From: an uncultured Actinomycetota bacterium | GTDB taxonomy: Bacteria > Actinomycetota > Humimicrobiia > Humimicrobiales > Humimicrobiaceae | DNA: 25,067 nucleotides | Direction: 5' to 3' | Assembly: GCA_964649405.1 (NCBI GenBank) | Contig: CAZYQD010000005.1 | Location: forward strand, 1-25,067 | In this document: piece after piece, positions 1,382 through 25,067 of the stretch | Numbering within the stretch: the stretch's first letter is position 1 | Layout of the letters: each line of letters begins with the position of its first letter | Translations under genes and position numbers: made by a program | The notes under the pieces: model-generated | What the model was told of the DNA's origin: nothing | The model's input: the letters and a program-made list of their open reading frames with translations, nothing else | Database searches by the model: none

Positions 1382-2119
1382 TCACTTACTCATGTAATAT
1401 CCCCATGAAGAAAAAATTGCAAAATAATTTATAAATGTATGAAAAATTATCGGGGGATAGATACTATCCGATTTAATAAGTAAGAATATTGCTATTATAT
1501 TCCAGATAAGATTGAAATAAAAAGCACTGAATGAAAAGTCAAAAGGTAAATGATATCCAATATAAAAAGTAGTGGATATTAAAAAGGCAGCTAAAAACCA
1601 GTGCCTGCCCAGTCTGTTTATACTCTGAAATACTGCTCCCCTCCAGGCAACATTATGAGGAATGACTGAAACCAGAGGATATTTGACGCTTTCAACCAGT
1701 AATACAATATACAGAGGATATCCCAGCATAGGAGGCATTGTAGCCATACCTCCCCCTTTTAGCACAGGGAAAAAATTGGTTAATAAAAGATAGGTTGGAA
1801 TTCCAAAACCAAAACCTATTACCATCCCCAGAGGGGCAATAAAATACCAGAATCTTTTTCTGGCTTTTTTAAAACCAAGATAAGCAAAAGAATATTTTCT
1901 AATAACAATATACCATATTAAAACCAGGCCCACTGATATTAAAGGAAAAGTCAAATGTCCCCAGGTCAGCCTGACATATGGTTCTGTTTTTGTACCCCAT
2001 AATCTATTTGATAAAATTGCTTCACCGATTATAATTGCGCCGATAATAATGGATACTACTGCATCTATCCATTTTTTTTCTTTAGCTTCTTTTGTGGACA
2101 ACCATTTTACAACCTTCAA
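1382..2119 (-). CDS. CPBP/Abi (CAAX protease-like) polytopic membrane protein with a degenerate first motif
   Basis: Multiple hydrophobic segments; P-x-x-x-x-WRG (IPHNVAWRG), YIGYH and HTFIN motifs in CPBP order and spacing; TTG start. Confidence 0.7.
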   Translation of the reverse strand: MKVVKWLSTKEAKEKKWIDAVVSIIIGAIIIGEAILSNRLWGTKTEPYVRLTWGHLTFPLISVGLVLIWYIVIRKYSFAYLGFKKARKRFWYFIAPLGMVIGFGFGIPTYLLLTNFFPVLKGGGMATMPPMLGYPLYIVLLVESVKYPLVSVIPHNVAWRGAVFQSINRLGRHWFLAAFLISTTFYIGYHLPFDFSFSAFYFNLIWNIIAIFLLIKSDSIYPPIIFHTFINYFAIFSSWGYYMSK

Positions 2120-21477: not shown

Positions 21478-21492
21478 ATCTCTTCCCCATAT

Positions 21493-21525
21493 AAAAAAAC
21501 CTCCTTACCATAAAGGTAAGAAGGT
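21493..21525 (-). terminator. Intrinsic attenuator-terminator in the pyrR leader
   Basis: Minus-strand RNA ACCUUCUUACC-UUUAU-GGUAAGGAGGU forms an 11-bp stem (one G-U pair) followed by a U tract, just upstream of the pyrR RBS. Confidence 0.9.
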
Positions 21526-21571
21526 CAAAATAAATCCGTTATTTTTATATTCTAAAAATATTCTTTTCATT

Positions 21572-21602
21572 CCTTTTTAGCCTCTCCGGACTATTTTAAA
21601 GG
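21572..21602 (-). ncRNA. PyrR-binding RNA element (anti-antiterminator)
   Basis: CCUUUAAAAU-AGUCCGGAGAGGCU-AAAAAGG. The core at 21592-21579 fits the ARUCCNGNGAGGYU consensus; a 5' CCUUUAA segment and closing CCUUU/AAAGG pairing are present. Confidence 0.92.
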
Positions 21603-21637
21603 TAATATTATTTTATTTAGTATTCTGCTAGAAAGAT

Positions 21638-21682: not shown

Positions 21683-22063
21683 TTATCCCATGTTCTTTCT
21701 GAGCTGTCGGAGCTTATAATTTAAGTCTCCTTTACCGCCGCCGCCGCCTTCTCTTCTGTAGCCACCACTACCGCCATTGCCGTAGTTTCTATCTCTCGGG
21801 CCATCAAAATTTCCTTTGTTCTGGGTTCTGGCTTCATTAACTACAATCGTTCTTCCTTTGAAATCACCCTGGTTGAATTTTTCGATAGCAGCCTTTGCCT
21901 GTTCCTCGGTTTCCATTTCTACAAATCCAAAGCCTCTCGATTTTCCATCCATTCTAGAAATGACTTTAGAATAAGTAACGGTACCTGCCTGTGAAAAAAA
22001 CTCTTCCAGTTCTTTGTCGGTAGTATTGTAATCCAGATTGCCCACGTACATTCTCTTGTTCAC
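21683..22063 (-). CDS. RRM (RNP-1) RNA-binding protein with glycine-rich tail
   Basis: RNP-2 MYVGNL, RNP-1 RGFGFVEM, ..VNEAR, then a Gly/Arg-rich tail; GTG start with GGAAAGG RBS. Confidence 0.95.
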   Translation of the reverse strand: MNKRMYVGNLDYNTTDKELEEFFSQAGTVTYSKVISRMDGKSRGFGFVEMETEEQAKAAIEKFNQGDFKGRTIVVNEARTQNKGNFDGPRDRNYGNGGSGGYRREGGGGGKGDLNYKLRQLRKNMG

Positions 22064-22255: not shown

Positions 22256-22283
22256 ATTATATAATATATTTTACATTTGTCCA
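22256..22283 (-). promoter_or_regulatory. Putative sigma-A promoter of the RRM gene
   Basis: TGGACA (22283-22278), 16 nt, TATAAT (22261-22256). The region is very AT-rich, so a chance match is possible. Confidence 0.45.
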
Positions 22284-22315: not shown

Positions 22316-22852
22316 TTATCTAAAAGTCAAAATTTTTTCCAGGGGCAGCCTTTTTCTGGGACCAGTTTTTAAATCTTTTTGTGCATATCCCACTGCTATC
22401 AGAGATACTATCTTCCATGTCAGAGGTATATTTAAGATCTTTTTTAACCTCCTGGCATTAAACCAGCCTATCCAGCATGTTGAAAGTCCCAGATCTTCGG
22501 CTTCAAGGACCAGGTGTTCAAGGGCAATGGCAACATCGATCAGGTGGTATTGGACCCTGATTATTGCTTCTCCTATATAGTGAGAAAACAGACTCTTTCT
22601 TACTGAACAACCGACTATGATAAGAGGGGCGGACCGGGCCCACCGGTTGATTATTCCCAGCGATTCCCTGACTACCCGGTAAAGTAATTCTTTATCGGTC
22701 ACCGCAACAAATCTCCAGGGCTGCCTGTTGGATGCTGATGGTGACAGTCTGGCCGCTTCGATTATTTTTATAATCTTTTCTTTTTCCACGGGCTGATCCG
22801 TAAATTTTCGCACACTGCGTCTTTTTTTTATCACCTCAAATATCTCAGCCAT
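22316..22852 (-). CDS. Nitroreductase-family flavoprotein
   Basis: KRRSVRKF, AARLSPSASNRQPWRF, LGLSTCWIG, RKRLPLEKI; GAGGT RBS. Confidence 0.93.
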   Translation of the reverse strand: MAEIFEVIKKRRSVRKFTDQPVEKEKIIKIIEAARLSPSASNRQPWRFVAVTDKELLYRVVRESLGIINRWARSAPLIIVGCSVRKSLFSHYIGEAIIRVQYHLIDVAIALEHLVLEAEDLGLSTCWIGWFNARRLKKILNIPLTWKIVSLIAVGYAQKDLKTGPRKRLPLEKILTFR

Positions 22853-22941: not shown

Positions 22942-24213
22942 TTAAGGTTCGACGACTTTCCCCATGAAAAGAATGCTTCCGCTTCTGTCATCGGAAATTG
23001 TAAAGAAGAAAGGCCTGTTTACTATAAACTGTACTATCTCCGTGGGTTCCATTGCCGATTCTATCATCTCGACAACCGTAGCAGCGGCTGCCTCGCTTCC
23101 TTTCTCGTTTACTTCTATAACAGCCTTGTGCAGAACCCGGGATATTAATATACCCGGACTTATTCCACTGAAATCTGCTTCCGGACTGAAAGCTATTCCC
23201 ATACCCAGATTAGTGAGTACATCGTTTATAACCTTCACCCCGTACTCCATCTTATATTTGGGCATAACCAGGGAAACTTCTGTACCGGAAAAAGACTGCA
23301 TTATCTCATTCCAGCTCTCTTCATCCAGGGATTCGATAACCGAATCGATCTCCTCTCCCTCATCAGGTAGGATTATATACATAGCCATCTTTTCCTGCCC
23401 GTAGGGAAGCTTTACTGCTGAGAAACCATCACCGTCATAGTAGGCAAAATTTCCTTCCTGACTCATCATCGGAACATTCTTTGCTGTTCCATCCAGAAGG
23501 TAAAAATCATCGTCAACCGTCAGGTCCTCATCAAAAGGATTTGTCCAGTTTCCCTTAAAATAAATGGCATTTATAAGATACATCACTGCGTCGGGGGGAA
23601 TGACATCCAGCATCTTTTCAATCTTTCCCTTTGTTTTATCCTCTATCCATCCGTTTATAGTATCCAGCACTCCCGGTTTGATAAAATCGATTTCATTTAC
23701 TTCCGAGGAGTAGTAATTTTTGTTTCTATCGATAAAATCTTGATTTATATCGTATCCCATCTTGTACCATATAGAATTTGCAATGGACAATTCTATATCG
23801 CTGTCGACATTCATTATACTTACCAGAAGATCATGAAACCCGGAATTCAGCTCCTCCAGATCAAACTCGCTAAAACCAAGAGCTTCGGCCATTGCCAGGT
23901 TGGTTTCACCAACTGAGCCGTTATATGTCATTGCAAGAGCAAGAAGTATCGAAAAAGGAGATATGAATACATTGCTGTCCTCATCTTCTGCAGTAAGTTC
24001 TTTAAAGATATTGAATCCGAATCCTGTATTGGCATCAACCAGATTCTTATCAACCGAACCTGCGCGTTCATCTGACTCCTCTATGGTAACTTCCTCTACT
24101 TCTGCTGTTTCCCCATCCTCTTTCCCGGCGCACGCTGTAAGCAAAGCTGCGTTGAAAAGAAACATAATCATAACGAGAATAGCAAGAATTGAAACAAGTT
24201 TACTTTTTTTCAT
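22942..24213 (-). CDS. Serpin (serine protease inhibitor), predicted lipoprotein
   Basis: NVFISPFSI, INGWIEDKTKGKI, YLINAIYFKGNW, hinge EKGSEAAAAT, FIVNRPFFF, LFMGKV. Preferred start is ATG 24213 (AAGGAG RBS): MKK + hydrophobic stretch + lipobox LTA-C28. Confidence 0.95.
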   Translation of the reverse strand: MKKSKLVSILAILVMIMFLFNAALLTACAGKEDGETAEVEEVTIEESDERAGSVDKNLVDANTGFGFNIFKELTAEDEDSNVFISPFSILLALAMTYNGSVGETNLAMAEALGFSEFDLEELNSGFHDLLVSIMNVDSDIELSIANSIWYKMGYDINQDFIDRNKNYYSSEVNEIDFIKPGVLDTINGWIEDKTKGKIEKMLDVIPPDAVMYLINAIYFKGNWTNPFDEDLTVDDDFYLLDGTAKNVPMMSQEGNFAYYDGDGFSAVKLPYGQEKMAMYIILPDEGEEIDSVIESLDEESWNEIMQSFSGTEVSLVMPKYKMEYGVKVINDVLTNLGMGIAFSPEADFSGISPGILISRVLHKAVIEVNEKGSEAAAATVVEMIESAMEPTEIVQFIVNRPFFFTISDDRSGSILFMGKVVEP

Positions 24214-24268
24214 AAAAACTCCTTGAACCATTCTTATAAATCTTTATATCATAAATCCTTAATATATA

Positions 24269-24297
24269 TACGATAGATACCTGAAATTAACCGGGGT
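24269..24297 (-). promoter_or_regulatory. Candidate sigma-I-dependent promoter upstream of the serpin
   Basis: Minus strand ACCCCGGTTAA-TTTCAGGTATCTAT-CGTA: C-tract, AA, 14 nt, CGWA, resembling described sigma-I promoters. Confidence 0.55.
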
Positions 24298-24324
24298 AGG
24301 AAAAGAATCAATAAATAATCCCGC

Positions 24325-25035
24325 CTAGTAAGCGTTCCCGTTTACTTCCAGCCTTAAGCTGGTTTCTCCTGCTTTAAGGAAAATCGGTTCCTTTTTAACC
24401 TTGGACGGTTCAAAACCATCAAGAGGAATTATTTTTACCTGTGACACACTATAATCGGCAAATAGCGTTGTAAGTGTAACTGTTCCGTTAAAACCCGAAA
24501 CACTGCTTATATTTCTAATTTCGACCTCTAGACTTACACTATCATTGACTTCATATGAAAAAGATAAAACGCCCTCTATATTTTCGCCTTCGACCTTCGC
24601 CTCTTCGATAAGAGAATAAGTCTTCTCAAAACTAACCGCTTCTTCTTGATCGGCATCCATACCTAAAACGGACTCTTCGGCACTTTCTTCCCGGGCTGCT
24701 TCTCCGGAAACTTCTTCTTCTGCTGCTTCCGGTGCTGCCTCTTCGGTTATATCCCCCGTCAACAGGGTCGCATTCCTTAAAGGAAGATACTGTTTGAAAT
24801 ACCATACCCCAAAAATCGAAAGTACTGCTATCACAACCACAGCCATAGATGCAACCGACAGGCTCTTCAACCAGCCAGCTTTGATCGCCTTCGGCTCATA
24901 GGAGTATTCTTTGGCGACCACGATCTCATCACCGATTTCAAATACTCCTACCGGAATATTCTGTTTTAAAAATTGCCCGTCTTTTGTCATGACGATGCAA
25001 TAGCCCTTATGCATTTCTATTATCACTGCTTTCAT
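24325..25035 (-). CDS. RsgI-type anti-sigma-I factor (RsgI_N domain, one TM helix, acidic linker, beta-rich C-terminal ectodomain)
   Basis: MKAVIIEMHKGYCIVMTKDGQFLK...FEIGDEI matches the RsgI N-terminal pattern; TM at about aa 59-80; E/A-rich linker at about aa 94-134. Confidence 0.8.
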   Translation of the reverse strand: MKAVIIEMHKGYCIVMTKDGQFLKQNIPVGVFEIGDEIVVAKEYSYEPKAIKAGWLKSLSVASMAVVVIAVLSIFGVWYFKQYLPLRNATLLTGDITEEAAPEAAEEEVSGEAAREESAEESVLGMDADQEEAVSFEKTYSLIEEAKVEGENIEGVLSFSYEVNDSVSLEVEIRNISSVSGFNGTVTLTTLFADYSVSQVKIIPLDGFEPSKVKKEPIFLKAGETSLRLEVNGNAY

Positions 25036-25067
25036 TTTCCACCACCCCTGCGGATATCAATATAGCT
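25032..25067 (-). CDS. 3' end of an upstream gene, probably the cognate sigma-I factor (...SYIDIRRGGGK*)
   Basis: Open frame from the window edge ends in TGA (25034-25032), overlapping the anti-sigma ATG (ATGA). Identity is inferred only from the usual sigI-rsgI coupling; 11 codons are not diagnostic. Confidence 0.4.
   Translation of the reverse strand, partial: SYIDIRRGGGK

Follow-up and report, generated by a model that had tools for sequence, protein, structure and literature searches.

Genes and features at the locus

The 25,067-nucleotide contig CAZYQD010000005.1 (assembly GCA_964649405.1), analysed here at its full length and referred to as the window, belongs to an uncultured, deep-branching, low-GC actinobacterium, and every gene in it lies on the minus strand. 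Read in the direction of transcription, the window begins with the last codons of a predicted sigma factor gene (sigI), followed by the gene of a membrane anti-sigma factor (rsgI), a candidate promoter of the sigma-I type and the gene of a serpin predicted to be a lipoprotein. An initial annotation of this DNA had named these four elements, and all of them were recovered, with coordinates unchanged, on the minus strand (Table 1).

The window is the whole contig and contains only 36 bases of the sigma factor gene, and exact-sequence look-ups with the RsgI and serpin proteins returned no match; the upstream gene was therefore read in orthologous loci. The start codon of rsgI (25035-25033) overlaps the TGA stop codon of sigI (25034-25032) in the tetranucleotide ATGA (25035-25032).

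Table 1. Coordinates of the sigI-rsgI-serpin module and of other features in the window.
Feature	Position	Strand	Remarks
sigI, 3' end	25032-25067	(-)	last 11 codons SYIDIRRGGGK plus TGA; reading frame runs off the contig end
rsgI, membrane anti-sigma-I factor, 236 amino acids	24325-25035	(-)	open reading frame and Pfam RsgI_N
RsgI_N, predicted cytoplasmic sigma-I-binding domain, residues 2-39	24919-25032	(-)	most conserved part of the RsgI alignment (A2)
Single transmembrane helix, about residues 59-82	24790-24861	(-)	S73, F75, G76 and Y79 nearly invariant
Extracytoplasmic disordered acidic tether, about residues 89-128	24652-24771	(-)	pLDDT (predicted confidence of the structural model) <50
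C-terminal eight-stranded beta-sandwich, residues 131-236, presumed sensor/cap domain	24328-24645	(-)	pLDDT >90, all-beta
Sigma-I-type serpin promoter (predicted)	24264-24297	(-)	ACCCCGGTTAATTTCAGGTATCTATCGTATATAT
-35 element	24292-24297	(-)	ACCCCG, then AT-rich TTAATTT
-10 element	24269-24272	(-)	CGTA, then TATAT
Serpin, predicted lipoprotein, 423 amino acids	22942-24213	(-)	Pfam Serpin E=2e-119 over the full model
Reactive-centre loop, residues 370-392	23038-23106	(-)	EKGSEAAAATVVEMIES-AMEPTE
Nitroreductase-family gene	22316-22852	(-)	between the serpin and RRM genes
Near-consensus sigma-70 promoter of the RRM gene	22256-22283	(-)	TGGACA-16-TATAAT
Small RRM-domain RNA-binding protein	21683-22063	(-)	Gly/Arg-rich tail; directly 3' of the module, kept in all loci
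PyrR-binding regulatory RNA	21491-21606	(-)	Rfam RF00515, 64 bits; upstream of pyrR, heads a complete pyrimidine biosynthesis operon
CAAX/Rce1-like intramembrane protease gene	1382-2119	(-)	at the opposite end of the window; shows no connection with the module

The sigma factor gene upstream of rsgI

In the orthologous loci L001, L004 and L006, whose RsgI proteins share 77%, 63% and 41% identity with that of the window, the gene overlapping rsgI encodes a protein of 232-234 amino acids with the C-terminus SYVDIRRGGG(R/K) or SYVNLSGGGER, and the 11 sigI codons of the window match orthologue C-termini (SYVDIRRGGGR/K). The three orthologues scored 209, 213 and 199 bits, respectively, on the NCBIfam equivalog TIGR02895 (cutoff 185). 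Comparison with Clostridium thermocellum SigI6 (PDB 8i24) gave E=2.7e-23, with SigI6 and SigI1 both at about 1e-23. By these family matches the upstream gene is predicted to be sigI in every orthologous locus, as the initial annotation had supposed when it took this gene for a sigma factor. Upstream of sigI in the relatives a housekeeping-like promoter (TTTATA-17-TATAAT) is conserved, and transcription of sigI-rsgI from a promoter of this predicted type is well supported.

A search with SigI found 291 relatives; NCBI gives several of them the name sigma-I factor, and one is placed in Candidatus Humimicrobiaceae. The sigma-I/RsgI literature describes a system of Bacilli and Clostridia, and no paper on sigma-I in Actinomycetota was found in it; NCBI annotation already names proteins from Actinomycetota metagenome-assembled genomes (MAGs) sigma-I factors. 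The initial remark that no description of sigma-I in such a lineage was known thus agrees with the papers found but not with database annotation.

Domain organisation of RsgI

Pfam RsgI_N (PF12791) matched the first 39 residues of the window RsgI (E=2.1e-10, 40.7 bits, cutoff 25). All 40 RsgI homologues found carry RsgI_N and come from uncultured organisms, some of them labelled as Actinomycetota MAGs. Together with the ATGA overlap, these matches agree with the coupled RsgI_N-type anti-sigma factor described initially, and the assignment of the protein as a membrane anti-sigma factor, read from its sequence, is well supported. In an AlphaFold2 model computed from 31 sequences, a small beta domain (residues 1-40) is followed by one long helix (residues 53-92), and beyond the membrane lie a disordered tether and a folded beta-sandwich. 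The tether is rich in glutamic acid (26% Glu, 5% Asp, 5% Lys plus Arg), varies in length among relatives through E/V/P-rich insertions and contains the recurrent motif EESAE/EES-x-L-S-M. The more distant serpin-type RsgIs of loci L088 and L090 have the same layout with a longer tether.

In characterised RsgIs a juxtamembrane SEAL/periplasmic domain cleaves itself at an Asn-Pro bond, and this autocleavage constitutes the site-1 step of sigma-I release (PMC10556640, PMC10328401). The Asn-Pro dipeptide is absent from the whole translation of the window RsgI, Pfam gave no match beyond RsgI_N, no alpha/beta juxtamembrane domain is present in the model, and no RsgI SEAL/periplasmic-domain structure was among the 50 fold matches listed. 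The presence of a SEAL domain was rejected because of the missing Pfam match, the disorder of residues 89-128 and the all-beta nature of the only folded ectodomain. What places the window RsgI in its family is the sigma-binding domain together with the partner; the signalling domain does not.

A fold search with the beta-sandwich returned a weak match to the MATH domain of SPOP (E 3e-4, TM-score about 0.5), and assignment of a MATH-type fold was rejected on account of this weak resemblance. No solved structure was matched significantly in sequence by the profile of the whole RsgI (alignment A2). The beta-sandwich gave only 12 matches at E<=1e-3 in a set of 1.84 billion representative proteins. 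The genuine ones are all RsgI-like, and those to very long repeat proteins were rejected as compositional, the proteins having unrelated Pfam content. By these searches the beta-sandwich is classed as an orphan domain.

The serpin and its reactive-centre loop

The open reading frame of the serpin spans 22942-24231. The serpin was taken as 423 amino acids since the ATG at 24213 has a ribosome-binding site, AAGGAG, 7 nt upstream and 36 homologues begin with MKKSKL; this ATG is most likely the true start. The predicted layout is a signal peptide (MKKSK...AALLTAC), an acidic tether of about 30 residues and the serpin core. The lipobox reads L-T-A-C, which conforms to the canonical pattern [LVI][ASTVI][GAS]-Cys, with Cys28 (codon 24132-24130) as the residue predicted from the motif to be lipidated, and this cysteine is kept in at least 90% of the serpin relatives. 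Many relatives read FTQC, with an atypical glutamine at position -1, and lipidation is uncertain there.

The hinge, E370-KGSEAAAAT, is of the inhibitory type, in agreement with the pattern of P15 Gly, P14 Ser/Thr and small residues over P12-P9. Comparison of 120 relatives revealed that P17, P15-P10 and P8 are invariant or have at most one exception per position, and that P16 and P9 vary. By its hinge type the serpin is predicted to be inhibitory, and with the Pfam match and the lipobox this conforms to the lipid-anchored, inhibitory-type serpin of the initial annotation. Analysis of the loop in the same 120 relatives revealed glutamic acid at P2 in 101, serine or threonine at P1 in 117 and alanine at P1' in 104, which gives the conserved loop pattern Glu(P5)-Met-x-Glu(P2)-Ser/Thr(P1)-Ala(P1'), with positions numbered by the loop length of alpha-1-antitrypsin. 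The scissile bond is probably Glu385-Ser386 or Ser386-Ala387.

The closest solved serpin structure is that of miropin from Tannerella forsythia (PDB 5NCS, E=2e-86). Miropin is a surface lipoprotein of broad specificity with Lys368-Thr as its main reactive bond, and its presumed role is protection of the cell surface and its proteins against foreign and host proteases. Both proteins are alike in predicted or known surface anchoring, and hinge and loop align without gaps (VEMIESAM in the window serpin, VEMVKTSS in miropin). Unlike the window serpin, miropin comes from a diderm member of the Bacteroidota and has its anchor in the outer membrane. At the loop positions occupied by Ile-Glu-Ser in the window serpin, miropin carries Val-Lys-Thr, so that the specificity probably differs. 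We know of no dedicated sigma/anti-sigma pair for miropin.

A candidate sigma-I promoter between rsgI and the serpin gene

The open reading frames of rsgI and the serpin are separated by 93 bp. Sigma-I promoters have the consensus ACCCCC--AA-15N-CGAA----T in Bacillales and C-N5-AAA-13/14N-CGWA----TW in clostridia (PMC4711584). The serpin promoter fits the Bacillales consensus with exact spacing, the CGTA starting exactly 25 bases after the A of ACCCC. A loose pattern, ACCCC-N12-24-CGWA, has two matches in the window against 2.5 expected and is not significant alone; hence it was replaced by a comparison of the spacing, an analysis of conservation and a weight matrix of the leave-out type. The promoter is present in all serpin loci examined and is conserved as two blocks in 15 diverged loci, in which the invariant positions are limited to CC in the -35 element and CG-T-T-TAT in the -10 element. 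With the window and its two closest relatives left out of its construction, a weight matrix gave 45.8 bits for the serpin site, compared with 12.3 bits for the next-best site in the window and 16.6 bits for the best of 200 shuffles. Applied to about 200 kb of related loci, the matrix matched only just upstream of the gene after rsgI. A sigma-70 consensus scan found no sigma-70-like promoter for the serpin. The sigma-I-like promoter noticed initially between the two genes is thus supported by spacing, by conservation and by the matrix score, and we consider it likely that the serpin promoter depends on sigma-I.

Just downstream of the -10 element (window 24232-24262, minus strand) the sequence GATTTATAA is conserved and occurs in two copies in the window. 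It also lies inside the housekeeping-like promoter upstream of sigI in relatives (L001:5205-5225), and could be an operator or an AT-rich coincidence.

Recurrence of the module and a sister module with DUF4349

A scan with the serpin alignment against one genome per species of the Genome Taxonomy Database (GTDB) returned 80 serpin loci. In each of the ten closest, which come from Actinomycetota MAGs, sigI-rsgI lies immediately upstream of the serpin gene. Neither SigI nor RsgI was found within 7 kb of any of the 70 serpin loci from Bacillota, Cyanobacteria, Acidobacteriota and other phyla; the SigI search model used was sensitive enough for clostridial SigI. The syntenic block has the order hyp259-(mazE)-hyp166-sigI-rsgI-serpin-(nitroreductase)-RRM-pyrR-pyrB. 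Identity to the window across the syntenic loci is 62-96% for the serpin and 49-87% for SigI, and RsgI is the fastest-evolving member of the block (38-77%, compared with 73-99% for pyrB).

A metagenome scan with the SigI alignment yielded 80 further loci, of which 56 are informative on the gene after rsgI. This gene encodes a serpin in 39 loci, a DUF4349 protein in 15 and neither in two; it is not visible in 23 loci where the contig ends, and one locus is without rsgI itself. The sigI-rsgI-serpin trio therefore occurs in 39 of the 56 informative loci, down to about 50% SigI identity. The survey of co-localisation suggested initially, in which adjacency unique to this genome would have spoken against a system, gave the opposite result: RsgI-serpin adjacency recurs in the species representatives and in the metagenome loci alike, across a diverged actinobacterial lineage.

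The sister module, sigI-rsgI-DUF4349 (L089:5001-7497, and among the 15 metagenome loci for example L124, L127 and L137-L141), stands in a different genomic context from the serpin modules. The DUF4349-type RsgI of L089 has the same architecture as the window RsgI, and the two are 33% identical from end to end, C-terminal domain included. DUF4349 modules carry ACCTC-N-CGTATAAT in front of the DUF4349 gene, at the same position after rsgI, so that the -35 element reads ACCTC in this type and ACCCC in the serpin type; this difference may mark specificity between paralogous sigma-I factors. The motif of the DUF4349 modules is the best evidence that the predicted promoter belongs to the sigma/anti-sigma pair and not to the serpin.

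Comparison with known systems

The module resembles the SigI/RsgI systems of Bacilli and Clostridia (B. subtilis SigI-RsgI; C. thermocellum SigI1-8/RsgI1-9) in its sigma factor above the TIGR02895 cutoff, in the single-pass anti-sigma factor with RsgI_N co-translated after the sigma gene, and in the predicted promoter with an ACCCC-type -35 element, an AT-rich tract, a CGWA -10 element and Bacillales spacing. An extracytoplasmic disordered region is likewise present in B. subtilis RsgI. In contrast to those systems, the present host is an actinobacterium, RsgI is without the SEAL/periplasmic domain and its autocleavage site, and the ectodomain consists of a tether and a small orphan beta-sandwich instead of a carbohydrate-binding module. 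Furthermore, no sigma-I promoter was detected upstream of sigI in this clade, and the apparent local regulon is a single adjacent gene, the serpin or, in the sister modules, DUF4349.

In Bifidobacterium breve a two-component system inducible by proteases is encoded beside the serpin operon, and induction by papain was shown experimentally (PMC8012564 and references therein). Both are actinobacterial systems with a membrane sensor-regulator encoded beside a serpin, and the purpose proposed for both is production of the inhibitor in response to environmental proteases. The two differ in that B. breve uses a histidine kinase and response regulator where the window has a sigma/anti-sigma pair, and the B. 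breve serpin shares its operon with genes for a membrane protein and a LacI-type regulator. None of the papers found links RsgI and a serpin functionally, co-mentions being lists of cellulosome components (cellulosomal serpins). The initial annotation knew of no description of such a circuit; this agrees with the papers found as regards the coupling of RsgI to a serpin, but not as regards a protease-inducible serpin circuit as such. Since B. breve already induces its serpin on protease exposure, what is new is the wiring and possibly a trigger based on activity; the concept of a protease-induced serpin is not new.

Regulated intramembrane proteolysis of anti-sigma factors is established for RsiV-SigV (lysozyme), RsiW/PrsW, RseA/DegS and the mycobacterial Rip1 substrates. 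In these systems an extracytoplasmic event truncates the anti-sigma factor, a site-2 protease completes the process and the products of the regulon counteract the hostile enzyme that had been detected, a sequence similar to the one proposed below. Those systems have extracytoplasmic function (ECF) sigma factors and other anti-sigma folds, and they rely on a defined site-1 protease or receptor step, whereas here the hostile enzyme is proposed as the first cutter.

Proposed mechanism and alternative explanations

Our preferred interpretation is a self-contained envelope-defence module triggered by proteases through the RsgI tether; as a whole it is offered tentatively, its probability falling a little short of even. 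In such a module sigI and rsgI would be co-translated from an ordinary housekeeping-type promoter, and RsgI would keep sigma-I at the membrane through RsgI_N. Proteolysis in the exposed tether, most likely by a foreign or stray secreted serine protease, would shed the ectodomain and replace site-1 cleavage. A site-2 protease and then cytoplasmic degradation would free sigma-I, which would transcribe the adjacent serpin gene from its dedicated ACCCC-N20-CGTA promoter. The lipid-anchored serpin, on a similar acidic tether at the outer face of the membrane, would trap the protease and end the signal.

Site-2 proteases generally require a truncated ectodomain. As the window RsgI has no autoproteolytic domain, its ectodomain must therefore be removed by another event, for which the long disordered tether is the obvious site. 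Regulated intramembrane proteolysis of the window RsgI is inferred. The initial annotation had tied sigma-I release to proteolytic processing of RsgI and supposed that an extracellular protease could clip the linker; the processing is known, but the site-1 step characterised so far is autoproteolysis at Asn-Pro and not the action of an outside protease. The missing SEAL/autocleavage domain leaves a gap that tether clipping could fill. Clipping is mechanistically reasonable because an uncleavable RsgI of B. subtilis can be processed by an unidentified extracytoplasmic protease, which enables cleavage by RasP (PMC10556640). Clipping by an outside protease is accordingly a plausible trigger, with a probability well below even. 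The proposal is favoured by the surface lipoprotein miropin, the nearest serpin of solved structure, with its role in guarding cells against foreign proteases, and by the induction of the B. breve serpin in response to proteases.

A narrower form of the proposal is that the tether acts as a decoy, its EESA motifs resembling the Glu-Ser-Ala of the serpin loop and being cut by the very proteases that the serpin traps. The hostile protease would then carry out site-1 cleavage itself and induce its own inhibitor. The P2-P1-P1' tripeptide of the serpin occurs within the RsgI tether in 15 of 29 distinct RsgI-serpin pairs, compared with 3.4 expected from composition-preserving shuffles. Little weight was given to this match because it is confounded by shared ancestry and composition, because the loop variants ETA, ETT, TSM and ATA show no covariation with the RsgI tether, and because ESA occurs in a DUF4349-type tether too. 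The decoy is considered rather unlikely.

Further observations weigh against protease sensing or against a dedicated sigma-I/serpin circuit. Loci L006 (6709-6984), L113 and L131 keep sigI-rsgI without a serpin, rsgI running straight to the RRM gene, and L117 (1394-1829) has a serpin remnant of 64 residues only and no promoter motif, which suggests a decaying serpin. Since the serpin was lost while sigI-rsgI was kept, sigma-I may have other targets. In 15 of the 56 informative loci the RsgI architecture seen in the window accompanies DUF4349 in place of a serpin, and the sensor is therefore not demonstrably protease-specific. The conserved, folded C-terminal domain suggests ligand sensing and not a passive bait. 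No sigma-I motif was found within the 110-170 nt upstream of sigI (L001, L004, L006, L088-L091), unlike in autoregulated Firmicute systems. Residues K170-H171-R172 and S174 in the C-terminal domain of SigI6 read the A-tract (PMC10575876). In a single pairwise alignment they correspond to R-Q-E and L in the SigI of L001, so that His171, an essential minor-groove residue of C. thermocellum SigI6, is replaced by glutamine; the arginine one position off could stand in for the missing residue.

The folded domain also underlies the main alternative, in which sigma-I controls the serpin but the trigger is a ligand of the beta-sandwich or the state of the cell wall sensed through the tether. Intramembrane proteolysis would then be started by an endogenous site-1 protease or by mechanical unfolding, and the serpin would be one output of an envelope-stress response. 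The confident folding and conservation of the C-terminal domain across the family argue for this explanation, as do the DUF4349 modules, where the same sensor architecture drives another gene, and the precedents of B. subtilis RsgI, whose disordered region senses peptidoglycan defects, and of the clostridial RsgIs, which use ligand-binding modules. On the other hand, no ligand-binding relatives of the beta-sandwich can be recognised, a SEAL domain that would turn a pulling force into an exposed site-2 substrate is absent, the sole detectable local output is a protease inhibitor, and the fast evolution of RsgI suits an interface with a variable outside partner. On balance this explanation is unlikely, with a substantial minority share of the probability. 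The logic of the preferred interpretation would also be retained without any foreign enzyme if a serine protease secreted by the cell itself were the RsgI site-1 enzyme and the sigma-I-induced serpin inhibited that same protease as a homeostatic brake. A single cognate protease would fit both the loop Glu-Ser/Thr-Ala and the tether EESA motifs, and bacterial serpins that accompany the cell's own secreted enzyme complexes, such as cellulosomal serpins, are known. Nevertheless, no protease gene is found in the conserved neighbourhood, as far as the contig fragments extend, and the tether/loop match is weak evidence, which leaves such a brake improbable.

At the other extreme, the serpin might stand beside sigI-rsgI by inherited synteny alone, the conserved motif serving an ECF sigma factor, a housekeeping promoter with a -10 element only, or a regulator. 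All serpin loci are orthologous and could have inherited both gene order and upstream sequence, TATATAT is similar to a housekeeping -10 element, and CGT-containing -10 elements also occur in ECF promoters; the lack of conservation of the A-tract-reading residue of SigI6 points the same way. These arguments are countered by the restriction of conservation to two blocks at sigma-I spacing within diverged flanking sequence. Furthermore, the invariant CG directly 5' of TATAT and the ACCCC -35 element match the sigma-I consensus and not TTGACA, and the non-orthologous DUF4349 modules have the same kind of motif directly after rsgI. A purely fortuitous neighbourhood is thus regarded as highly improbable.

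Neighbouring genes

Beyond the module the window is a conserved actinobacterial housekeeping block. The order is nitroreductase, RRM protein, pyrR, pyrB, pyrC, carA, carB, pyrK, pyrD, pyrF and pyrE, followed by a mihF-like gene, gmk, coaBC, metK, priA, def, fmt, rsmB, a CAAX-type protease and a GNAT acetyltransferase. The nitroreductase was rejected as part of the module since only four of the 13 syntenic loci have it, namely the window, L001, L004 and L012. The L004 copy starts 15 bp after the serpin and may be co-transcribed with it.

Two conserved genes lie upstream of sigI, one encoding 259 amino acids (L001:3590-4369, plus strand) and the other, divergently transcribed, 166 amino acids (L001:4665-5165, minus strand). 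Neither has a Pfam match, and both accompany the module in nearly all syntenic loci. A MazE-like antitoxin gene, joined in L004 by a PIN toxin gene, is variably inserted between them.

Implications

The literature treats sigma-I/RsgI as a Firmicute system with an autoproteolytic first cleavage. A conserved SEAL-less actinobacterial clade in which the pair controls one adjacent output gene would reveal a second mode of running the sigma-I/RsgI switch, and it would provide a very simple study system of one sensor, one promoter and one product. The parts are small and could be reconstituted in Bacillus subtilis, as has been done for clostridial sigma-I factors. If the tether is indeed clipped, the module would illustrate clearly how a bacterium can sense a hostile enzyme by its catalytic activity. 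It would also place bacterial serpins, about whose physiological roles little is known, in a regulatory setting. If the tether is in addition a decoy for the proteases that the serpin traps, an activity-detecting sensor would have been built from a SEAL-less sigma-I/RsgI pair outside the Firmicutes.

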